From Deltaproteobacteria bacterium (GTDB lineage: Bacteria > Desulfobacterota > GWC2-55-46 > DRQE01), in contig DAOVXI010000001.1 of assembly GCA_030636245.1 (NCBI GenBank), positions 1 through 53,221 on the forward strand: a stretch of DNA of 53,221 nucleotides, in the 5' to 3' direction. The notes beneath the pieces are model-generated. The model ran no database searches. It was not told the origin of the DNA and saw only the letters and a program-made list of their open reading frames with translations. This document shows positions 9,457 to 20,963 of this stretch, piece after piece. The first letter of the stretch is position 1; every line of letters begins with the position of its first letter. The position numbers were made by a program, and so were the translations under genes.

Positions 9457-10236
9457 ATGGGAAAAGTTATCTCAATAGCAAATCAAAAGGGCGGGGTTGG
9501 AAAGACCACAACCGCTGTGAACCTTGCCGCGTCGTTGGCGGTTGCGGAGAAAAAAGTGCTTTTAATTGACTTTGATCCGCAGGGAAATGCCACAAGCGGC
9601 TCGGGGCTTAATAAAGAAGAAGAAAAAACAGGGATTTACGAGGCCATTATCGGAGAAGTTGATATTCGTGAGGCCATTCGCGACACAGCCATACCGAGCC
9701 TTAAGGTCGTACCATCAACGGTAGATCTTATTGGCGCCGAGGTAGAGCTTGTTGATGACCCTGGCAGGGATACAAAATTAAAGGAAGTAATAAGTACCAT
9801 TAAAGATGACTTTGATTATGTGCTTATTGATTGTCCGCCGTCGTTGAGCCTTTTGACAGTGAACGCGCTTACAGCCAGTGATAGTGTGCTTATACCGCTT
9901 CAGTGTGAGTACTATGCTCTTGAGGGTATAAGCTCGATGCTTAGAACAATAGATCTTATACGGGCAAGCTTAAACCCCGAGCTTGAGGTTGAAGGGGTGC
10001 TCCTAACGATGTTTGACGCGAGGAATAATCTTTCTCATCAGGTAGCTGACGAGATACGCTCTCATTTTGGTCAAAAAGCATTTACGACCGTTATTCCGAG
10101 AAATGTGCGGCTGAGCGAAAGCCCTAGCTTTGGAAAACCTGTTATTTTATATGATGTTAACTCAAAAGGTGCCTCCAGCTACCTTGAGTTTGCTCAAGAA
10201 TTTTGTGCAAAAGGGATGGAAGCGCCGTTAAACTAG
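9457..10236 (+). CDS. parA: Chromosome partitioning ATPase ParA/Soj
   Basis: Deviant Walker A NQKGGVGKTTTAVNLA. ParA-type order of motifs. Length 259 aa. Confidence 0.95.
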   Translation: MGKVISIANQKGGVGKTTTAVNLAASLAVAEKKVLLIDFDPQGNATSGSGLNKEEEKTGIYEAIIGEVDIREAIRDTAIPSLKVVPSTVDLIGAEVELVDDPGRDTKLKEVISTIKDDFDYVLIDCPPSLSLLTVNALTASDSVLIPLQCEYYALEGISSMLRTIDLIRASLNPELEVEGVLLTMFDARNNLSHQVADEIRSHFGQKAFTTVIPRNVRLSESPSFGKPVILYDVNSKGASSYLEFAQEFCAKGMEAPLN

Positions 10237-10265
10237 CAAAGGAATAAATTCTTCAATAAAATCAA

Positions 10266-11156
10266 ATGGTTACGAAAGAAAAAAAGAAAAAAGTACTCGG
10301 AAGAGGCCTAAAGGCTCTTATCGGGGACGCGGGGGTAAGAACCCCAACAAAGGAGGAGAAGAGCAAGCTCTCTCATGAGGGGGAGTTCTTTTTCTGTGAT
10401 GTTTCCAGGCTGCATGCCGGCAAAACGCAGCCGCGCAAAACCTTCAATGAAGAAGCCCTGGGTGAGCTTGCCGCGTCTATTAAGGAGAACGGCATAATTG
10501 AGCCGCTTGTTGTAAGAAAAATAAAAGACGGCTTTGAGCTTATTGCCGGCGAAAGACGTTTAAGGGCCGCGCGCCTTGCCGAGCTCAAGCAAGTACCTAT
10601 AGTTGTTCTTAACGTAAGCGATAAGCAAACACTTGAGCTTGCGATAGTTGAGAACGTACAGCGTGAAGACCTTAACGCAATAGAAGAAGCAGAGGCTTAT
10701 AAAAGTTTGATGGATTTTGGATTAAGCCAAGAAGGGGTCGCTAAAAAGGTTGGTAAACAAAGAGCCACCGTTGCTAATTACTTAAGGCTTTTAAAGCTGC
10801 CTGTTGAGGTAAAAAAAGAGGTAGCTAATAATAATATTACAATGGGTCACGCAAAGGCCATACTTTCTCTCGATACACACGCAAAGCAAAGGGAGCTTTT
10901 AATAAAGATCCTAAAGAAAGGTTTGAGTGTGCGAGAGGCGGAAAAACTTTCTTTAGAGGTTTCCGGAGCAAAAGAAAAAACCACTACAACTAAATTATCA
11001 AGGGAACACATAAAGCCTGTAGAGGAAGAGCTTCGGAGGATCTTCGGCACCAAGATAAGTGTTATGGACAGAGCGGGTAAGGGAAAGATAGAGATAGATT
11101 ACTATACCAATGACGAGAGAGAGCGGATACTTGATATGTTAAGGTCCGTTGGATAG
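10266..11156 (+). CDS. parB: Chromosome partitioning protein ParB/Spo0J
   Basis: ParB box GERRLRAARLA, an HTH region (QEGVAKKVGKQRATVANYLRLL) and a C-terminal dimerisation segment. Confidence 0.95.
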   Translation: MVTKEKKKKVLGRGLKALIGDAGVRTPTKEEKSKLSHEGEFFFCDVSRLHAGKTQPRKTFNEEALGELAASIKENGIIEPLVVRKIKDGFELIAGERRLRAARLAELKQVPIVVLNVSDKQTLELAIVENVQREDLNAIEEAEAYKSLMDFGLSQEGVAKKVGKQRATVANYLRLLKLPVEVKKEVANNNITMGHAKAILSLDTHAKQRELLIKILKKGLSVREAEKLSLEVSGAKEKTTTTKLSREHIKPVEEELRRIFGTKISVMDRAGKGKIEIDYYTNDERERILDMLRSVG

Positions 11157-11182
11157 CTTTAACCTTAAGGAGGTAAGTTAAG

Positions 11183-11581
11183 ATGTTCAATAAAAAAGAG
11201 ATGGATAGGGTAACAGAGGTAGACGACCTTAACGGTTTTATTGGAAAAGGCATGAAGGTTGTGGGCAAGCTTAGCTTTGAGGGAAGCGTAAGGATAGACG
11301 GAGAGTTCAGCGGAGAGGTTAACTCATCCGGCATTCTTCTTGTCGGCGAGGGCGCCAAGGTAGACGGAGAGATCAATGTCGATACGGCCGTTATCTCGGG
11401 TGAAATAAAGGGAACGATAAACGCTAAGAAGAAGGTTGAACTTATAAGTCCTGCCAAGATAGAGGGGGATATAAAATCACCAACCCTTATTATTGGTGAA
11501 GGTGTTGTATTTGACGGTACATGCGCCATGGAGAAAAGACCTGCCGAGCTCAAGCCTGTTGTTAATGCAGGGGCAGAGTAG
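11183..11581 (+). CDS. Bactofilin (polymer-forming cytoskeletal protein, CcmA/BacA family)
   Basis: 132 aa with the typical beta-helical repeat pattern: G.F.G....G.L.VGEGAKV.GEI....AVISGEIKG.I.A...VEL...AKIEGDI....L.I.EG..F.G. Confidence 0.85.
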   Translation: MFNKKEMDRVTEVDDLNGFIGKGMKVVGKLSFEGSVRIDGEFSGEVNSSGILLVGEGAKVDGEINVDTAVISGEIKGTINAKKKVELISPAKIEGDIKSPTLIIGEGVVFDGTCAMEKRPAELKPVVNAGAE

Positions 11582-11597
11582 CTGGCTTTTTTAAAAA

Positions 11598-12443
11598 TTG
11601 GTTATAACTTTTGATAAGGTTTTTGGTGCCGCAGCACTTTGTGTAGTCCTGGTGCTTTTTATAGTTTTTGGCAATGGCGGTGATATAGATATAACCGCCA
11701 GGGCAGAAGCAAGCGAAGCAGAGGAGTTAATACTTCCCGCTTCTGTTATAAGCCTTCAAGAGGGAAGCGAACTTTTACTTGTCGACAAAGGTTCCCACAC
11801 GCTGTACCTTTATTCAACAAAGGGCTTTGAGCGTTTTAACATAACAAGCGGGCAGGCTAAAGGGGATAAGCAAAAAAGAGGTGACTTAAAAACACCTGAA
11901 GGCGTTTATTTTTTTAATAAGGTTATCGAAGGTAAGGACCTTCCGTCAAAGTATGGTGTGCTTGCCCTTGTAACCGACTATCCAAACCCGGTCGATAGGG
12001 CCAACAAAAAGAGCGGCTCCGGGATTTGGCTTCACGGAACGGATGATCCGCCAAGGCTTGAAAGACCGCGTGACAGCAGAGGTTGTACGGTCCTTCTAAA
12101 TGAGGATGTGCTTAAGATCACTAAGCAGGTAAAACTCGGAGAAACACCCATGGTGGTGGAGGAAGAGGTTTTATTTATTGGTAGCACAGAGTTTGATAAA
12201 AAACGGGAAGAGCTTTTTAAAGAACTTAAAAGGCTTGAGCTTATAACAGCGGAGAGCGCAAAAGACCATACAATATTAATGGCGGGCGGCATGGTTACGG
12301 TAAGCCGGGTTGTCGGCACAGAGAACTTGGTTACCTACCTTAATAATACAGACAACGGTTACGAGGTCGTAGCCACACAAAGTCTGAGCATAAACACAAA
12401 AGAACCGTCTGATACGGCTCTGAGGCTTGGCAACAAAAATTAA
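11598..12443 (+). CDS. L,D-transpeptidase-fold protein, YafK/ErfK-like, N-terminal membrane anchor
   Basis: GDLKTPEGVYFF ... DYPNPVDRA ... GSGIWLHGT ... SRGCTVL matches the YkuD-fold His...Cys catalytic arrangement. TTG start with no clear RBS, so the start is uncertain. Confidence 0.7.
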   Translation: MVITFDKVFGAAALCVVLVLFIVFGNGGDIDITARAEASEAEELILPASVISLQEGSELLLVDKGSHTLYLYSTKGFERFNITSGQAKGDKQKRGDLKTPEGVYFFNKVIEGKDLPSKYGVLALVTDYPNPVDRANKKSGSGIWLHGTDDPPRLERPRDSRGCTVLLNEDVLKITKQVKLGETPMVVEEEVLFIGSTEFDKKREELFKELKRLELITAESAKDHTILMAGGMVTVSRVVGTENLVTYLNNTDNGYEVVATQSLSINTKEPSDTALRLGNKN

Positions 12444-12479: not shown

Positions 12480-13394
12480 GTGAATAAAGCAGATAAGATA
12501 TGGCTTGATGGAGCGCTTGTTGACTGGAATGATGCGAATGTGCACATACTAACGCATTCGCTTCATTATGGACTTGGAGCCTTTGAGGGAATAAGGTGCT
12601 ATAAATGCGACGATGGCAAAAGTGCTATTTTTCGTTTAAAGGAACATACGAAAAGATTTTTTCAAAGCGCGCATATCCTTCAGATGGAGATGCCTTTTTC
12701 CGAGGATGATATAAACGCGGCCATCAAAGAAACACTTAAGGCAAACAAGCTTGAAGAGGGCTATATACGGCCCATTGTTTTTCTGGGTGACGGATCAATG
12801 GGGCTTTATCCCAAGGGTAATCCTACACGTGTGGCGATAGCCACATGGGAGTGGGGCGCATATCTTGGCGACGATGGAATAAAGAACGGCATAAGGGCAA
12901 AGGTTTCTTCATTTACTCGTCATCATGTCAATGTTAGTATGACAAAGGCCAAGGCCTGTGGTTATTATGTTAACTCAATACTCGCCAAGCGTGAGGTCGT
13001 AAAGGCAGGCTATGATGAGGCAATAATGCTTGATACCGAGGGCTATGTATCTGAAGCGAGCGGAGCTAATATCTTTATCTATCGTAACGGTGTACTCAAG
13101 ACAACACCTTTAACAAGTATTCTGGACGGGATAACAAGGGCAACCGTCATAGAGCTTGCAAAGGATAGTGGTATTGAGGTTCGTGAAGAGCGCTTTACGC
13201 GCGATGAGCTCTACATAGCCGATGAGGCATTTTTTACCGGTACCGCCGCGGAGATAACACCTATTAGAGAAGTTGATGATAGGGTAATAGGTCAGGGACG
13301 GCCCGGTCCAATAACAGAAAAAATACAAACTCTTTTCTTTGACATAGTAAAGGGAAAAAACGACACCTATAGCCGTTGGCTTGATATCGTTTAA
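12480..13394 (+). CDS. ilvE: Branched-chain amino acid aminotransferase (class IV)
   Basis: Class IV aminotransferase motifs: [38 protein letters not shown] start preceded by GAGGAG. Confidence 0.9.
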
Positions 13395-13431: not shown

Positions 13432-13640
13432 TCATGCATTTTTCTCCGCACTGACTTCTGAAGCACATCACCATTTCGGTCTATCCATTTAATTTTCCAG
13501 ACATTTTTTTCTTGTAATAGATTGTCGATTTTAGTAACATCTGTTAGTTAGGTATAAATAGGGGATTATTGTCTGAATGACGATAAGTTTATACCGTGTT
13601 AACTAATCCTCACGGCAACAATTACGGTGGGGGAGGGAAA

Positions 13641-15314
13641 ATGTCTGCAGAAGGTTTTTTTGGCCCAAGCGAAAGCAATCTTGTAGACCTCATTCAGATG
13701 TGGGGTCTTGCAAAGACCAGTGGCATTCTTACCGTTAAAAGCGGCAAGGAAGATGGAGAGATGCATTTCGAGGAAGGCCGTGTCGTCTGGGCAAACGCAG
13801 GACCTTATCTTTCCGGAGAGGATGCCATATACCACCTTTTGGCCCTGGAAGAGGGCCGTTTCCGTTTCGTAAACTCCCGCGAATTAAAACATAACGGTGA
13901 ACTTAACTGCTCCTATAGCGAGATCATTATGGAGGGCATGCGTCGGCTTGACCATCTTAAGTTAGAGATGCAGGGCGTAGATGAAAAGCTTGGGTTTATA
14001 CCGTTCATTAAGGGTGTCCCCGGAAGCACAAATGGCGGCTCTGCAGAGGTAAGTGATGAGGAAAAGGTCTTCATGGCCTTGGTCGACGGGAAAAGGAACC
14101 TTGAAAAGGTTTTTGATAACTGCGGCCTTGGAGCGCACAAAAGCTTTAAGGTCTTTAAGGCGCTTTGTGACAAGGAGCTGGTTGAGCTCAGAAAAGTTCG
14201 AGTGCTTGTTGTGGACGATCAATCAATGTGGCGTAACGTCATAAGTAATATGCTTCTTAAAGAACCTTGTTTTGAGGTAATCGCTACCGCGGAGGATGGG
14301 GTTGATGCGCTTCAGAAGATAAGCGAGCTTAAGCCGGATGTCATAACGTTGGATCTTGAGATGCCGCGTCTTGACGGAATAAAAACACTTTATTGGATGA
14401 TGAGCGGTGGCTACGATATACTTTTAAAGTCACAGCATAATGTTGAGATAAAAGACACCTTCAGATGTCCGGTCGTTGTTATAAGTGCTGTTGCAACCAA
14501 GATGGCGCCGGAAACCCTCGAGGCGCTAATGGGCGGTGCAACAGGGTACATAACAAAACCTTCACAGTTCGTAAGTGAAAGCCTTGAGCAGCAGCAAAAA
14601 ACCATAGCTAAAACCGTCCTCATGGCAAGCCAGGTGGATCTTCAGAAATCAAGAAGGATTAAGGCTCTTGATATAGACTCAAAGGATATTGAAAACCTTA
14701 AACCCGCAAGGAAGCTTGTTTGCGTGGGCGCTTCCATGGTTGGAGGGCTGACATCCCTTATGCAGCTCATCCCACAGTTTCCGGAAAACCTTGACGGCTC
14801 TGTTTTTGTAGTAGTAGACGATCTTTATTCAATAGAACATACTAAAAGTTTTGCCGAGTTCCTTGACCGTCACAGCAAGATAAAGGTAGAGGCGGCGGAC
14901 AAAAACAATATACTTAAAAGCGGTACGGTTTATATTTCAAGTGCGGACAATGCCGTTGAATTCGGGCAAGCAAATGTAGATGGACTTGTGCAGGCCGCTT
15001 ACAGGATAACCTCTAAAAGGCAGGGCGAGGAGTTGGACAAGAACTTTAAGCCTTTGGATACAATGCTTGAGAGCGCAATTAAGTGTAAGGGTTTTGATAA
15101 AAGGATAGGTGTTGTGCTTGCCGGCGATGGCACGGACGGAAAGATCGGGTTCTTGGAGATGGTAAAGGTGGATGACAAGGTTTTTGCCCAGGACTCTTAT
15201 TCATCACTTAACCCTATTAAACCGGAGAACGTTGCCAATACCGGTGTTGCGAGGGTAATACCCCTTGCGGCAATGGTAAAAAGTATCATTATGGAAGTTG
15301 GGAGGAGCGTTTAG
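13641..15314 (+). CDS. PATAN(DUF4388)-REC-CheB-like (methylesterase-fold, probably inactive) fusion protein
   Basis: The N-terminus NLVDLIQMWGLAKTSGILTVK...GEMHFEEGRVVWA...GEDAIYHLLALEEGRFRF matches the DUF4388/PATAN pattern. The middle part VRVLVVDDQSMWRN...KPDVITLDLEMPRLDG is a CheB-type receiver. The C-terminal part LVCVGASMVGG...VFVVVDDLY...VLAGDGTDG is colinear with the CheB methylesterase. I prefer the ATG at 13641, preceded by GGGGGAGGG, over the GTG at 13596. Confidence 0.75.
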   Translation: MSAEGFFGPSESNLVDLIQMWGLAKTSGILTVKSGKEDGEMHFEEGRVVWANAGPYLSGEDAIYHLLALEEGRFRFVNSRELKHNGELNCSYSEIIMEGMRRLDHLKLEMQGVDEKLGFIPFIKGVPGSTNGGSAEVSDEEKVFMALVDGKRNLEKVFDNCGLGAHKSFKVFKALCDKELVELRKVRVLVVDDQSMWRNVISNMLLKEPCFEVIATAEDGVDALQKISELKPDVITLDLEMPRLDGIKTLYWMMSGGYDILLKSQHNVEIKDTFRCPVVVISAVATKMAPETLEALMGGATGYITKPSQFVSESLEQQQKTIAKTVLMASQVDLQKSRRIKALDIDSKDIENLKPARKLVCVGASMVGGLTSLMQLIPQFPENLDGSVFVVVDDLYSIEHTKSFAEFLDRHSKIKVEAADKNNILKSGTVYISSADNAVEFGQANVDGLVQAAYRITSKRQGEELDKNFKPLDTMLESAIKCKGFDKRIGVVLAGDGTDGKIGFLEMVKVDDKVFAQDSYSSLNPIKPENVANTGVARVIPLAAMVKSIIMEVGRSV

Positions 15315-17948
15315 TTGAGCGAAGATCTTTTCGGATACTCTGTTGAGGAATTCAAGGAGGAGGCAAAAGAGCTCCTTGAAAGAAGCGAAGGTATTATTGC
15401 CAAGATCGCTGAGGACCCGAGTGACAATGAACACGTGAACGCACTTTTCCGTGCCATACATTCGCTTAAAGGTAGCTCCGGTTATGTTGGTCAGAATGAT
15501 ATAAATAATTTTGCTCATGGCTTTGAGAGTCTTTTGGGCATACTCAGAAATAAAAAACAAGAGGTGACCGACGAGGTTGTTAATGTCATTCAGCGTTCAT
15601 GCGATTACCTTGAGGATCTTGTTTTCCATCCTGAAACAACCGAAGTGCTTCATCTTGATGAATCAATTACCGATGTATATGAAATGGTAAAAGGTGCCTT
15701 TAAGGGCCGCACCGGGGCGCAGCCACAAGCGGCCGCACCAGAGCCGGTACAGGCACCATCCCCGACGCCTCCTATCCAGGAAGCTCAGCCTCAGGAGGGT
15801 TTGAGCGAGGAGCCTGTGTCAACACAGGTTGAAGCGCCGGTAGCCGAAGCGCCACAGGTTACCGAGGTGGCAAAACCAGAGATCATGCATTCAGAGGAAG
15901 AGCATGCCCGTCCGCCTGAAGAGCTTACAGCTGCTGACAGCCCTGAGGACTTTGTCTTTACCGAAGAGGCCCCAGACGCAGAGCCGGTAGATCACTCGGA
16001 CATGGATCAGGGCGATGTTATAAAGATAACCCTCACGCAGTCGCTTGAGGCGCTTAAGAATGCGCTTAGAGAAGATCGCCCTAACAAAGATGATGTTGAG
16101 AAGTATATAGGCAAACTTAGAGATACGGTAAGCTGGGCCTTTGGTGATGATATGCCAACGACGACCATTGCTCTTGAGGAGATGGAGTCACTCGTTTTAG
16201 GCACAGATGTGCTTGGAGCGCGGGAGCTTACCATGCTGAGGAAGGGCTTTGTTATGATGGCCCCGGAGATCATGAGAGAACTCGGTATTGACGTAGGGGG
16301 TCCGAGCAGCTCTGTTAAAAAAGAAGAAGAGGTAGAAGACAGCAGTGAAGCCGAACAGATGCGAGGAGCCTCAAGGGAAGATATCGTAAAGATAGCGCTT
16401 ACGAATAACCTCGAAGCACTTACCTTATACCTTGAAGAGGAAAACCTTAATGTTCAAGAGTTGCATAAGGCAATTGGAAAACTTCATGATCTAAACAGAT
16501 GGGCCTTCAATGAAAATGCTGAAGCATCAATGTCGCTTATTGCGATGGAGGACCTTCTTAAAAGAGTTGATGACCCGGAAAGTAACAAAGAGATCAGGAT
16601 AAGGGGTTCGCTGCTTAAAAAAGAATTAATGCCTTTGATAGAAACAAGCCTTGTTTCCGATAGAGCCGAGGTGGGCACAGAGTATCACGAGCCTGTTGCT
16701 GTTGCACCTGTTCCGAAGGAAAAAGAAATAGAGTCACCCTTAATTAGAGTGCCGGTCGACTCTGCGCCTACTACGCCGCCGCCTGCTCTAGATCAAGAAG
16801 AGAGACCTGCTCCCATACAAAAGGGTCGCAGAGTTGTTGCAAAAAAAGCAAGTCCTCAAAGTGCGGCGAGTCTTAAGATACGTTCCGAGGACCTGGAAAA
16901 CCTTATCGGTACCGTCGGAACTTTAAAGGGGATCAAAGAAGAAGATTTTCAGAAACTTCAGGCCGCTACACTTCAGCTAAGAATGATCCCGGTCGGAGAG
17001 ATCTTCAGCCGTTTTAAGAAAGTTGTAAGGGATCTATCCGAAGAGCTGGGTAAGCCCATGCGTCTGGAGCTTTCAGGAGAGTCGGTTAAACTTGATAAAG
17101 CCATAGCGGACAAACTGACAGAGCCACTTATGCACATGGTTAGGAATGCGGCAAGTCATGGCATAGAAAGTGAGGCGGAACGCTCGGCGCTTGGCAAGGG
17201 CCCAGCGATAATAAAGTTAAGCGCGGCTCAGGAAGGTGGACAGGTCGTAATACAGGTGGCTGACAACGGCAAGGGAATAAGCCTTGCAAAGGTCCGGGGA
17301 AAAGGTATTAAGCTTGGACTTATAAAGGAAGAAGATTCCGTTGGAATGACCGAGAAGAAGATACTTGACCTTATTTTCTCGCCGGGGTTCTCTACACATG
17401 AAGGGGCTGACAAGATATCCGGACGTGGTGTTGGTATGGATGTTGTAAAAGATGCGATAACCTCCATTCAAGGGGTCGTTTCCATAGATACACGCGAGAA
17501 CTTCGGAACAACATTTAACCTTCAACTCCCGCTAACCCTTGCTATAATAAGAGGCCTGGTCCTTCAGCAAAGCGATTCCAAAATAGCCGTTCCTGCGGCT
17601 TCTGTTGACAGGGTAATGAATATGATGGCAAAGGAGATCGAAGAGGCAAGCTTTATGGATAAGAACAGGGTTTGTCTTTATTTACAGGAAGAGGGAGAGG
17701 TTATGCCTATAGTTAACTTCTCAGAGGTTTTTGGTTTCGAACCTTCTTCTGATAAAAGATGCGTTGTTTTGATAAGGATAGGCGGGGGGCATAAGGTGGC
17801 TTTGATAGTTGATGAAGCGCTTGGTCGTCAGCCGCTTACCATTAAACCGTTGGATAAGTTTTCTGAGACAAAATACTTCTCAAGTGCTTCAATGATAGAA
17901 GAGGATGTAGTGCTTATACTTAATATACCTAGCTTGTTGGCTGCGTAA
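15315..17948 (+). CDS. cheA: CheA-like histidine kinase (HPt - Pro/Glu-rich linker - two ~60-aa repeats - dimerisation - HATPase - CheW-like)
   Basis: HPt motif FRAIHSLKGSSGYVG. N box HMVRNAASHGIE, G1 DNGKGI, G2 GRGVGMDVV. C-terminal CheW-like domain. The TTG start directly abuts the upstream TAG and is preceded by GGGAGGAG. Confidence 0.9.
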   Translation: MSEDLFGYSVEEFKEEAKELLERSEGIIAKIAEDPSDNEHVNALFRAIHSLKGSSGYVGQNDINNFAHGFESLLGILRNKKQEVTDEVVNVIQRSCDYLEDLVFHPETTEVLHLDESITDVYEMVKGAFKGRTGAQPQAAAPEPVQAPSPTPPIQEAQPQEGLSEEPVSTQVEAPVAEAPQVTEVAKPEIMHSEEEHARPPEELTAADSPEDFVFTEEAPDAEPVDHSDMDQGDVIKITLTQSLEALKNALREDRPNKDDVEKYIGKLRDTVSWAFGDDMPTTTIALEEMESLVLGTDVLGARELTMLRKGFVMMAPEIMRELGIDVGGPSSSVKKEEEVEDSSEAEQMRGASREDIVKIALTNNLEALTLYLEEENLNVQELHKAIGKLHDLNRWAFNENAEASMSLIAMEDLLKRVDDPESNKEIRIRGSLLKKELMPLIETSLVSDRAEVGTEYHEPVAVAPVPKEKEIESPLIRVPVDSAPTTPPPALDQEERPAPIQKGRRVVAKKASPQSAASLKIRSEDLENLIGTVGTLKGIKEEDFQKLQAATLQLRMIPVGEIFSRFKKVVRDLSEELGKPMRLELSGESVKLDKAIADKLTEPLMHMVRNAASHGIESEAERSALGKGPAIIKLSAAQEGGQVVIQVADNGKGISLAKVRGKGIKLGLIKEEDSVGMTEKKILDLIFSPGFSTHEGADKISGRGVGMDVVKDAITSIQGVVSIDTRENFGTTFNLQLPLTLAIIRGLVLQQSDSKIAVPAASVDRVMNMMAKEIEEASFMDKNRVCLYLQEEGEVMPIVNFSEVFGFEPSSDKRCVVLIRIGGGHKVALIVDEALGRQPLTIKPLDKFSETKYFSSASMIEEDVVLILNIPSLLAA

Positions 17949-17986
17949 CTTAGAACGTTAATCTTAATTATCTTAAGGAGGAAGTG

Positions 17987-18373
17987 ATGTCGGATAAAAA
18001 AAAGGTTTTGGCCTTGGATGATCAGAAGTCGATGCAGAACATATTGAATTTTTCACTGAAAAAAGAGTTTGATGTAACAATTGTTGGTACTTCTGACGAT
18101 GCGATAAGTAAGGCAAAAGGAGAGAGCTTTGATTTTATTCTCCTGGACATTGTTCTTGATAATGACACAAGGGACGGGATAGGGGTTGCCCAAGAGCTTC
18201 AGGGAGCAGGCATAAACACACCGGTTGCGTTCTTGTCATCGCTTACTCAGGACAGCCTTGCGGATGACCAGAAGGAAAGGGCATCAGGGTTAAACAACAT
18301 AAAGTTCTATCAAACCAAACCGATACAACCTGATGACCTTGTAAAAAAGATATACGGTGTTGTGGGAGAATAG
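17987..18373 (+). CDS. cheY: Single-domain response regulator (CheY-like)
   Basis: VLALDDQ ... FDFILLDIVL ... FLSS ... TKP supply the receiver acidic pocket, phospho-Asp, Ser/Thr and Lys positions. RBS AAGGAGGA lies upstream of the ATG at 17987. Confidence 0.85.
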   Translation: MSDKKKVLALDDQKSMQNILNFSLKKEFDVTIVGTSDDAISKAKGESFDFILLDIVLDNDTRDGIGVAQELQGAGINTPVAFLSSLTQDSLADDQKERASGLNNIKFYQTKPIQPDDLVKKIYGVVGE

Positions 18374-18427: not shown

Positions 18428-18934
18428 ATGGCAAAGATAAAGATCCTTACATTTTTAATAAACGACAGATACTTTGCGTTGCCCTCGGCCAGCATCAAGG
18501 AGATCCTTGACTCCGAGAAGAGCATCAAGCAGATATTTTATAATAGGGGCGGAGCCTTAAGGGGTTTGCTTGTTTATGAAGGGGATATGATATCTGTGCT
18601 TGATACAGAGATACTTCTTGATATTGCAAGCAACGGCAATGGTAACGGTAAGGGTACGGCCCTTGGGATGGATAAGCTTGTACTTATCTGTAAGGACAGG
18701 GAGCTTGAAAGAGCCATAGCGATAGTTATAAATTCGATCGATTGCATGGAAACCATTGAAGAAGAAGAACTTAAACTCTCGCAGGATGAGAGTGCAACAT
18801 ATACGAGAGGTTTTATTAAAGAAGGTAAGGGTGAAGAGCAAAGGGTTGTAACGGTACTTGATCTTAAAAAGTTTCTCGAATACTCCGGCAAAAGAATAGA
18901 GTCGCTGGAGAGTGGGGAAAGAGTAATAAATTAA
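18428..18934 (+). CDS. cheW: CheW-like coupling protein
   Basis: Length 168 aa. ILTFLINDRYFALPSASIKEIL is the typical CheW N-terminal beta-strand pattern. Cluster context supports the call. Confidence 0.75.
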   Translation: MAKIKILTFLINDRYFALPSASIKEILDSEKSIKQIFYNRGGALRGLLVYEGDMISVLDTEILLDIASNGNGNGKGTALGMDKLVLICKDRELERAIAIVINSIDCMETIEEEELKLSQDESATYTRGFIKEGKGEEQRVVTVLDLKKFLEYSGKRIESLESGERVIN

Positions 18935-18959: not shown

Positions 18960-20963
18960 ATGAAAAAATCGATCGGAAATACCATCGGTGAAATTTTTAA
19001 ACTCAACCTGAGAAAGATAACGCGAAATTTTTATGTGCTCACGGTTGCATCAGTTGTTGTCGGGTTGATTATTTACGTTGAGGTTAGTTCCATTTGGAGT
19101 AAGGTTGAAGCCGTTAAGGATGGTTCTCTTCCGCTGCTCATACAATCGCAGAAAACAGATAACGCGCTTGGTGATACAAAACTTGTTATTGAAAAACTTT
19201 ATGATGCGACGGAGCCGGGGGTTAGGGATATTCTCCTTTTAACAATTCAGGAGACTAACAAGGTTTATAAATTGGAGCTTAATAAACTGGTTGTTATGCT
19301 TTCCTCGGAGTCAGCACAAGCGATTAAGACAAAGCTTCAAAAAGTATCTAGTACATATATTCAACTTTTTGAGAAAGGCATACCGGATACCGCCGCTGCA
19401 TACAATAATTTGGCGAATGTTAAGGGTGCGCTTATGGAGGTTAACACATATACACTTGAGACGATCGCCACTGACTTTAATGCATCACAGGCCGCGAAAA
19501 ATAACGCTACCATTGTTATCGTCTTTACTATTCTTGCAGCCATCGGTGGAATGATCATAACAAGTCTTGTTCTTACCGGAGTTGTCAGTCAGCCGGTTAC
19601 GAATGTTGCCGACTCGCTTGCCAAAAACACCCTTGATATAGAAAGCGTGCTTGGTGAGATAAGTGAAGGTGCAAAGGCACAAACAGAGATCGTCAAGAAC
19701 GCCACAAAGGATCTTGAGGATATGATAATTAATATTATTCAGGGTAGCATTACCTTGAGCGTTGAAAAGCAGTCTGAGATATCAGGTGTTTTTGCAGAGT
19801 TTTTAAGACAGTTCGTTGAAAGGACATCTGCTGAGATCGCCATGGGTATGATGACCGTTTCACAACAGTCACAGGAAGCTCGTAGCGAGATGGATAAGTT
19901 TGTTAAAGAGCTTGCCAATGTTGAGGGTAACATTAAGGACCAGGAGACAGCTGTTCTTGGTATGGTTGACGCGGTCAGATTGATCGCATCATCCAATGAA
20001 GATATTAAGAAGAAAACAATCACCTCAACAGAGGTTGCTGATAAAGCCACAAGGATGGCCGCGGAGGGTCAGGAGAGAATTGGTGTTATCTCTGAGGAAC
20101 TTCAGGATGTACGTAAATCCTCAGAGGGTGTTGCCGAGATAACCGAGTCACTCGCGAAGATTACGGAAAACATTAAAATACTCGCACTTAACATGAGTCT
20201 AAAGGTCGAAGATATTCGAGATGATACGGGTAAGTCATACGGGTTTGAGGCCATGAGTGCCAGGGTTCAGGAGCTAGCCGAAGAGGTTGAAGGCTTGCTC
20301 GAGAACTCTAAAGAGATGATTTTGCCTACCATTAAAGCTATTACAAAAGTTAGTGGCGATGCGGAACAGGCAAAAGAGCTTATCACAGAGGTTGCAAGAT
20401 CAATTAAAGAAGCTGATGAAGAAAGTAAAGCTATCGCAATTGAGATCGATACTCAGAGTGTTGAGATCTCAAGGGTTGAAAAGTCTGCACAGGGATTGAG
20501 TGAGTTGGCCAAGAAATCAACGGAAACAATTAGTGAGCAGACAAAGCTAGTTAAAGATGTTGATGAAATGCTTGGAGAATCGGTTACGCTGGTTGACAGT
20601 GTTAGTGCGCAGACCAACGAAGCGAACGAAGCCGCTCGAAAAGTTAATGACATGATGGAGGAGCTTAAGGCCTCAATGAGCAGCATTGAGGAGGGCACAG
20701 GACTATTGACCGAAAAAAGTGTTGAGCTTTCCGAGATATTTGAGACCATTAGTGTTCAGTCCGCAAAGAACCTTGACGGAGCTGAAAGACTTGAGGTCGT
20801 CTCTAACGCTGTTAGGGATGTTGCCGGAAGACTATCATATGTTGTTCAGGGCGGAAAAGGAGAGGGCAACGGAGCGGCACAGGCCCGGGGAAAGGGTAGC
20901 CAGGAGCAGGTAGTGGAAGATGTGGCCGCCGCCGGGTCAAAGGAAACACCGCCGGTTGCCTGA
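18960..20963 (+). CDS. Methyl-accepting chemotaxis protein-like transducer with divergent signalling tip
   Basis: Two TM segments (FYVLTVASVVVGLIIYV; IVIVFTILAAIGGMIITSLVLTG) flank a ~150-aa extracytoplasmic region. A long coiled coil follows, containing ...ITENIKILALNMSLKVEDIRDDTGKSYGFEAMSARVQELAEE, a degenerate version of the MCP hairpin core. Confidence 0.7.
   Translation: MKKSIGNTIGEIFKLNLRKITRNFYVLTVASVVVGLIIYVEVSSIWSKVEAVKDGSLPLLIQSQKTDNALGDTKLVIEKLYDATEPGVRDILLLTIQETNKVYKLELNKLVVMLSSESAQAIKTKLQKVSSTYIQLFEKGIPDTAAAYNNLANVKGALMEVNTYTLETIATDFNASQAAKNNATIVIVFTILAAIGGMIITSLVLTGVVSQPVTNVADSLAKNTLDIESVLGEISEGAKAQTEIVKNATKDLEDMIINIIQGSITLSVEKQSEISGVFAEFLRQFVERTSAEIAMGMMTVSQQSQEARSEMDKFVKELANVEGNIKDQETAVLGMVDAVRLIASSNEDIKKKTITSTEVADKATRMAAEGQERIGVISEELQDVRKSSEGVAEITESLAKITENIKILALNMSLKVEDIRDDTGKSYGFEAMSARVQELAEEVEGLLENSKEMILPTIKAITKVSGDAEQAKELITEVARSIKEADEESKAIAIEIDTQSVEISRVEKSAQGLSELAKKSTETISEQTKLVKDVDEMLGESVTLVDSVSAQTNEANEAARKVNDMMEELKASMSSIEEGTGLLTEKSVELSEIFETISVQSAKNLDGAERLEVVSNAVRDVAGRLSYVVQGGKGEGNGAAQARGKGSQEQVVEDVAAAGSKETPPVA

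Follow-up and report, generated by a model that had tools for sequence, protein, structure and literature searches.

In bacterial chemotaxis, CheB is the textbook enzyme of adaptation, and the catalytic triad of the Salmonella protein is Ser164-His190-Asp286. In the Pil-Chp pathway of Pseudomonas (PilG/PilH, PilI, PilJ, PilK, ChpA and ChpB) the CheB protein, ChpB, has a normal triad, a CheR is present as PilK, and PilG carries no PATAN domain. The PatA-type regulators of the cyanobacterial Tax/Pix systems (PixG, PilG and PixE) consist of an N-terminal PATAN domain followed by a receiver (REC), and stop there. In Synechocystis PixG and PixE, output is through the PATAN domain, which binds PilB1/PilC, and cyanobacterial Tax systems have neither CheR nor CheB (bioRxiv 10.1101/2021.06.11.447907). 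A stretch of 53,221 nt from a Deltaproteobacteria bacterium (hereafter the window; contig DAOVXI010000001.1 of assembly GCA_030636245.1, positions on the forward strand) encodes a response regulator that appears, judged from its sequence, to be part PatA-type regulator and part CheB. PATAN and REC are followed by a third domain of about 190 amino acids with the CheB fold, and the family of the regulator is a separate three-domain branch in which Ser and Asp of the triad are retained. REC, linker and CheB alpha/beta fold are shared with the CheBs of Salmonella (1A2O, 1CHD), P. atrosepticum (6YMZ) and T. maritima (3SFT).

The CheB-derived domain lacks the catalytic His. We lean, by a modest measure, towards the view that it is a phospho-switched binding module and not a methylesterase, and signalling by the regulator most likely works through binding and not through receptor demethylation. 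A conserved His-less CheB fold would show the recycling of the adaptation enzyme once a pathway abandons receptor methylation.

Layout and active site of the CheB-like domain

The family of the regulator was defined by a word-indexed search and comprised 44 proteins, all with the same three domains; some alignment columns were counted over 43 members. Residues are numbered from GTG 13596 except where ATG numbering is stated. The gene and its domains were located as follows.

13641..15314, + strand: PATAN-REC-CheB-like response regulator gene, 557 amino acids (from the list of open reading frames (ORFs) and the homologue starts)
13671..13958, + strand: PATAN (DUF4388, PF14332) domain, residues 26-121 (Pfam E 9.4e-17, 61.6 bits against a cut-off of 25; same coordinates in the whole-genome scan)
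14055..14171, + strand: small three-helix subdomain in the gap between PATAN and receiver (AlphaFold2 helices 139-147, 154-160 and 164-177, ATG numbering)
14202..14567, + strand: receiver (REC, Response_reg PF00072), residues 203-324 (Pfam 64.9 bits, above the cut-off)
14403..14468, + strand: family-specific receiver insertion of about 20 amino acids, SGGYDILLKS...RC, after helix 3 and before strand 4 (all canonical CheBs are gapped here)
14718..15287, + strand: CheB_methylest-fold domain (PF01339) without the catalytic His, residues 375-564 (coordinates from the genome scan)

The CheB_methylest profile of Pfam was matched end to end (positions 1-174 of 174, E 1.1e-27, 97.3 bits against a cut-off of 24), which bears out the original prediction that the C-terminal 200 or so amino acids are colinear with CheB. 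The curated NCBI cut-offs for CheB were not reached, with 206 against 293 bits for NF001965 and 168 against 342 for NF009206. Using phmmer, residues 196-567 were aligned to the solved CheBs 6YMZ (E 6e-30) and 1A2O (E 2e-29). An AlphaFold2 model, built from a 120-sequence alignment (mean predicted local distance difference test 92.8, predicted template modelling score 0.89), was compared with known structures by Foldseek. The receiver and C-terminal part of the model matched the inactive full-length CheB 1A2O_A with a template modelling score (TM) of 0.85, normalised to the target, and a root mean square deviation of 4.2. The C-terminal domain matched the T. maritima catalytic domain 3SFT with a TM of 0.86 and a deviation of 2.8. 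From these matches the CheB fold and the closed arrangement, with the receiver on the cleft, are predicted to be retained. The phospho-acceptor set of the receiver (D207, D208, D253, S297 and K321) was intact, and it is invariant in the family and in canonical CheBs.

The triad was mapped by phmmer against 6YMZ and 1A2O, by MAFFT with 76 ordinary CheBs and by hmmalign to the canonical CheB profile. For 1A2O, M-CSA lists Asp, His, Met, Ser and Thr as catalytic residues (PMC11796326). The corresponding or newly added positions of the regulator were the following.

14733-14735, + strand: Ser380, equivalent of the CheB nucleophile Ser164 (codon TCC; Ser in 44/44 family members, with variable flanking positions)
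14817..14825, + strand: D408-D409-L410, at the Thr188-Gln189-His190 positions by phmmer and MAFFT (L410 codon at 14823-14825)
14838..14840, + strand: His415, at the CheB Phe195 position, five residues past the lost His (H in 44/44 family members versus F in 74/76 CheBs)
15126..15137, + strand: D511-G-T-D514, within AGDGTDG, which runs from 15120 to 15140 (D511 43/43, D514 43/43)
15219..15221, + strand: Lys542, in place of Met of the CheB GMP motif (K in 43/43 family members versus M in 75/76)

Ser380 and D514, the equivalent of Asp286, are retained, and no alignment placed a His at the His190 position. The original prediction of a domain that keeps Ser and Asp and lacks the catalytic His thus held, as did its reading of the underlying letters: GASMVGG with its Ser codon, the codons GTA GTA GAC GAT for V406-V407-D408-D409 at 14811-14822, AGDGTDG and the segment AQDSYSSLNPIKP are all present as described. 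It had further put Asp-Asp where the His should be, which was right to within one residue. phmmer and MAFFT set L410 at this position and D408-D409 on Thr188-Gln189, whereas in most members hmmalign moved the loop by one residue, so that D409 fell on His190. Because the loop has one residue more than that of CheB, the register carries an ambiguity of one position. In either register, D408-S412 was free of His in all 44 members. By the first register, the His190 position is Leu in 42/44 members, with one Met and one Phe, and D408 and D409 are each invariant (44/44), while the corresponding columns of canonical CheBs hold Gln in 73/76 and His in 75/76.

The surroundings of the triad also differ from CheB. 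One residue is inserted right after Ser380 (GAS-M-VGG), and the Thr165 position is Val. D511 occupies the Met283 position, giving AGDGxDG in place of TGMGxDG. K542 lies within a near-invariant block, QDxYSSLNPxKPE, in which the GMP motif has become xKP. In the model, H415 sits in the first turn of a helix (398-410) that follows a strand (387-392) and a loop (393-397; all in ATG numbering), and it is a candidate for either a relocated catalytic His or a binding residue. This is the His of SIEH to which the original prediction had pointed as a possible occupant of the catalytic position.

Conservation of the family and its PATAN-linked relatives

The 44 homologues share 58-73% identity and come from MAGs (metagenome-assembled genomes) of uncultured Desulfobacterota; below them, scores fall sharply to ordinary CheBs at about 30% identity. 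Whether orthologues share the His loss had been raised with the original prediction, and the loss, together with retention of Ser and Asp, was common to 44/44 members. Mean pairwise identity within the family was highest in the receiver (0.78), followed by PATAN (0.67) and the CheB-like domain (0.62), and the three-helix subdomain was the least conserved part of the protein (0.53). Invariant columns made up 17% of PATAN and likewise 17% of the CheB-like domain. The 33 invariant columns of the latter cluster in the four loops from which the CheB active site is built. Judged by this comparison, the CheB-like domain is under purifying selection, because it is as conserved as PATAN, and the former active-site region is its most constrained part.

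The family was present in 6/16 other genomes of the same GTDB family and in 0/24 genomes from seven other families of the same order. A pattern scan of GTDB species representatives yielded ten family loci that were kept, all of them in MAGs; the informative labels among these were Deltaproteobacteria, Proteobacteria or Thermodesulfobacteriota bacterium. In a quick maximum-likelihood tree of the CheB-like domain, the family was monophyletic with a Shimodaira-Hasegawa-like approximate likelihood ratio test (SH-aLRT) support of 100 and had the longest internal branch, with 1.16 substitutions per site.

More distant relatives came from a complete HMMER search of 1.84 billion representatives, with the family profile as query, in which the family itself forms one 50% cluster. 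The best 150 matches contained many other proteins with PATAN and a CheB-like domain, examples of which were confirmed by Pfam. Most had the architecture REC-PATAN-REC-CheB-like, some were PATAN-REC-CheB-like and some carried PATAN at the C-terminus. These proteins (P0047, P0129 and P0138, for example, with REC-PATAN-REC-CheB*) resemble the family in combining PATAN, REC and PF01339 with an incomplete triad, and in occurring in Desulfobacterota-type MAGs and chemosensory contexts. They differ from it in mostly having an extra N-terminal receiver or pseudoreceiver and Gly at the Ser position, and are about 27% identical to it. Members of the family consist of three domains with Ser and Asp retained, and carry motifs of their own (DD...H, AGDG and QDxYSSLNPxKPE).

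For triad counts, all matches were aligned to the canonical CheB profile. Ser-His-Asp was complete in 0/31 of the PATAN-containing proteins outside the family versus 173/190 CheBs without PATAN. This difference suggests that catalysis is generally dispensable in the PATAN-linked architecture, and it is the strongest comparative argument that the CheB-like domain of the regulator is no esterase. PATAN-linked pseudo-CheB regulators apparently constitute an undescribed, widespread class in Desulfobacterota-type bacteria. No paper was found that describes either PATAN-CheB fusions or pseudo-CheBs, in agreement with the earlier remark that the fusion had not been seen described; the architecture itself proved to be common in sequence databases.

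Outside the family, a His at position 195 (CheB numbering) was found in 12/43 sequences without His190 versus 5/178 with it, which is about ten times more frequent. Ala, Gly or Pro stood at the Ser position in 8 of these 12, so His195 needs no nucleophile. By a hand count, Ser was retained in 4/12 sequences with His195 versus 6/31 without; the two were not clearly coupled, which gives a relocated triad no decisive support. Another set of REC-CheB proteins, of ordinary length and lacking PATAN (P0164, P0270, P0231, P0159, P0187, P0213 and P0248), had Tyr at the His190 position, His at 195 and Ser or Ala at the nucleophile position, and represents another variant of the CheB active site.

Operon, proposed function and alternative readings

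The regulator gene is the first of five genes, the other four of which were assigned as follows.

15315..17948, + strand: CheA-type kinase with Hpt, HATPase_c and CheW-like domains (Pfam; same gene next in all orthologous loci)
17984..18373, + strand: CheY-like single-domain receiver (Response_reg 44 bits; conserved in the operon)
18428..18934, + strand: CheW (Pfam CheW 55.5 bits)
18960..20963, + strand: divergent membrane receptor of 667 amino acids, similar to methyl-accepting chemotaxis proteins (MCPs; MCPsignal 28.4 bits, below the cut-off of 34.6)

The five genes occurred in the same order in orthologous loci with unrelated flanks (L009, L011, L012, L015, L017-L020 and L022), and the orthologues showed no frameshifts or truncations. 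With the four CheR proteins of the genome as tblastn queries, a CheR was found neither in the 53-kb window nor in any of 12 orthologous loci, and according to Pfam the operon holds no CheZ, CheX or CheC phosphatase. The receptors were scanned for the methylation-site consensus [ASTG][ASTG]xx[EQ][EQ]xx[ASTG][ASTG]. No conserved match was present in eight cognate MCPs, whereas each of two canonical MCPs of the same MAG, used as a control, had 2-3 matches flanking the tip. Both the missing CheR partner and the missing methylation sites set the regulator apart from CheB. With the PatA-type systems the locus shares a second CheY-like receiver, CheW, MCP and CheA and the lack of CheR; it differs in gene order, with CheA directly after the regulator, and in a CheA without C-terminal receiver. 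Pil-Chp is comparable as a pilus-type pathway with a CheB-family protein. It differs from the operon in having a CheR and a separate CheB, whereas here the CheB-like domain and the PATAN regulator make up one protein.

On this basis, the regulator is proposed to be a PatA-type (PATAN-REC) protein with a CheB-derived third domain, whose gene comes first in a chemosensory operon of the pilus type (Pix/Tax-like) that works without methylation. Judged from its intact acceptor residues and from the shared operon, the receiver would be phosphorylated by CheA at D253. In the closed arrangement of the model, the receiver would cover the C-terminal cleft as in CheB, and phosphorylation would free it. 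The C-terminal domain would no longer act as a receptor methylesterase, because it has no His190, an altered oxyanion-hole region and no CheR partner, and because the cognate receptor has no methylation sites. Instead, the conserved, remodelled cleft (S380, D408, D409, H415, D511, D514, Y535 and K542) may form a phospho-switched docking surface. Its likely partner would be the divergent receptor/CheA array, with localisation or non-covalent feedback as the result. PATAN would deliver the output to the pilus motor, by analogy with cyanobacterial PixG/PixE, which bind PilB/PilC.

The original prediction had also taken the domain for a pseudo-esterase kept as a binding module. This fits the lost catalytic His, the lack of CheR, the lack of the methylation consensus and the 0/31 complete triads, and it is weakened by the invariance of H415, Ser380 and Asp514. 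Several observations weigh against a pure binding role or against the proposed pathway. S380, H415 and D514 are invariant while their neighbours vary, and a pure scaffold would not require the retention of Ser and Asp; H415 might reach Ser380. Most other PATAN-linked pseudo-CheBs have Gly at the Ser position, and the Ser-retaining family is therefore under a different constraint. In the tree, the family stood beside the canonical CheB clade (SH-aLRT 90, a weakly supported placement) and not with the other PATAN-linked forms. A tree uniting all triad-deficient forms was not rejected by the approximately unbiased test (p 0.48), and the placement is hard to fix because of the long stem branch. 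Other parts of the genome encode CheRs, which might in principle methylate a substrate of the regulator. Finally, no pilus genes were found beside the operon, whether in the window or around the loci L009 and L011.

The first alternative is a rewired hydrolase, with Ser380 as nucleophile, His415 as base and D409, D511 or D514 as acid, which would still modify a protein side chain, for example by CheR-independent Gln deamidation of the divergent receptor. We consider this possible although unlikely. Invariant S380 (44/44), H415 (44/44) and D514 (43/43) amid variable neighbours are what it would predict, as is the clustering of invariant residues in the four active-site loops. The enrichment of His195 in sequences without His190 is compatible with a relocation of His, and the family groups with the catalytic CheBs in the tree. 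However, the insertion after the nucleophile and the change of Met283 to Asp alter the catalytic region defined by M-CSA, and among the sequences outside the family, His195 mostly accompanies Ala, Gly or Pro at the Ser position. The cognate MCPs carry no methylation or deamidation consensus sites, the architectural relatives are all triad-deficient, and three extra Asp around the Ser-His pair would be unexpected in an esterase whose target is an acidic receptor surface. The family is the best member of the class for testing a pure binder against a rewired active site, since it has kept Ser and Asp and added an invariant His.

We regard it as a tentative idea that the CheB fold was re-tooled, as a relocated Ser380-His415-Asp triad or as an acidic Mg2+/phosphoryl pocket, for new chemistry such as CheR-independent deamidation or phospho-signal termination. 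If so, one polypeptide would have two phospho-controlled outputs, from PATAN to the motor and from the enzyme to the array.

The pocket taken on its own is improbable. D408-D409 at the end of a strand, D511/D514 in the loop that comes next, S380 and K542 would by analogy resemble the Asp-Asp/Asp/Ser-Thr/Lys sites of receivers and HAD proteins on a Rossmann-like fold. Such a site might hold Mg2+ together with a phosphorylated ligand, or serve the pathway as a phosphatase or phosphate sink. The residues are invariant and lie at the C-terminal edge of the parallel sheet, and a CheZ, CheX or CheC phosphatase is missing from the operon. The proposal is nevertheless a pattern analogy alone, to which database models and structural matches other than CheB lend no support.

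That the domain is a decaying relic, drifting after the pathway lost methylation, is hardly credible and was rejected on conservation: the lost His, a genome-scan Pfam score below the canonical CheBs of the genome (100 vs 119-220 bits) and the long stem branch of 1.16 substitutions per site would fit, but the domain is full length and confidently folded in the model, as conserved as PATAN across the 44 members and free of frameshifts or truncations in the orthologues, and its 33 invariant columns are concentrated in the loops of the former active site.

Gene start, receptor and genome context

The ORF of the regulator (13596..15314, + strand) is open from GTG 13596, and its translation reads as transcribed in the original prediction. 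ATG 13641 is the likely true start, because all homologues start with MSAEGFF and the purine-rich GGGGGAGGG is located 5 nt upstream of it. GTG 13596 was dropped as a start, since the homologue starts favour the ATG. Within the receiver insertion, S255, G256, Y258, L262, R275 and C276 (ATG numbering) are invariant. The model predicts an extra helix here (258-266), on the face opposite the phosphorylation site.

The MAG comprises 1.66 Mb and is 88% complete. Three further CheBs were present, all with GASTGG and QHMP, and each shares its contig with a CheR. TGMGxDG was present in the two complete canonical copies; the third copy is cut by the contig end. A fourth CheR-domain ORF of about 500 amino acids (C70:3989-4534 (-)) is longer than the three CheB-paired CheRs. 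No CheB domain was found on its contig, and it may be an orphan or fused CheR. The genome also holds several PilB/PilT-type ATPases and four PATAN proteins. FliG was not detected in the MAG, which at this completeness does not prove its absence.

Upstream of the operon, at 9457-12443, lies a gene string that includes a bactofilin (11183-11581) and a gene with the YkuD-type L,D-transpeptidase fold (11598-12443), followed by a class IV aminotransferase gene (12480-13394). These upstream genes have no evident link to the chemosensory operon.

CheA starts with a TTG codon immediately after the stop codon of the regulator. Its Hpt domain and its kinase core are separated by a long acidic linker rich in Pro, Glu and Ala, with repeated helical modules at the usual place of P2. 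The MCP-like receptor has no C-terminal pentapeptide. Its hairpin tip, IKILALNMSLKVEDIRDDTGKSYGFEAMSARVQELAEE, is strongly divergent and degenerate, yet near-identical in the orthologues of other genomes. In the orthologous operon L011, a PilJ-type sensor domain takes the place of the periplasmic region of the window receptor, a further likeness to Pil-Chp.

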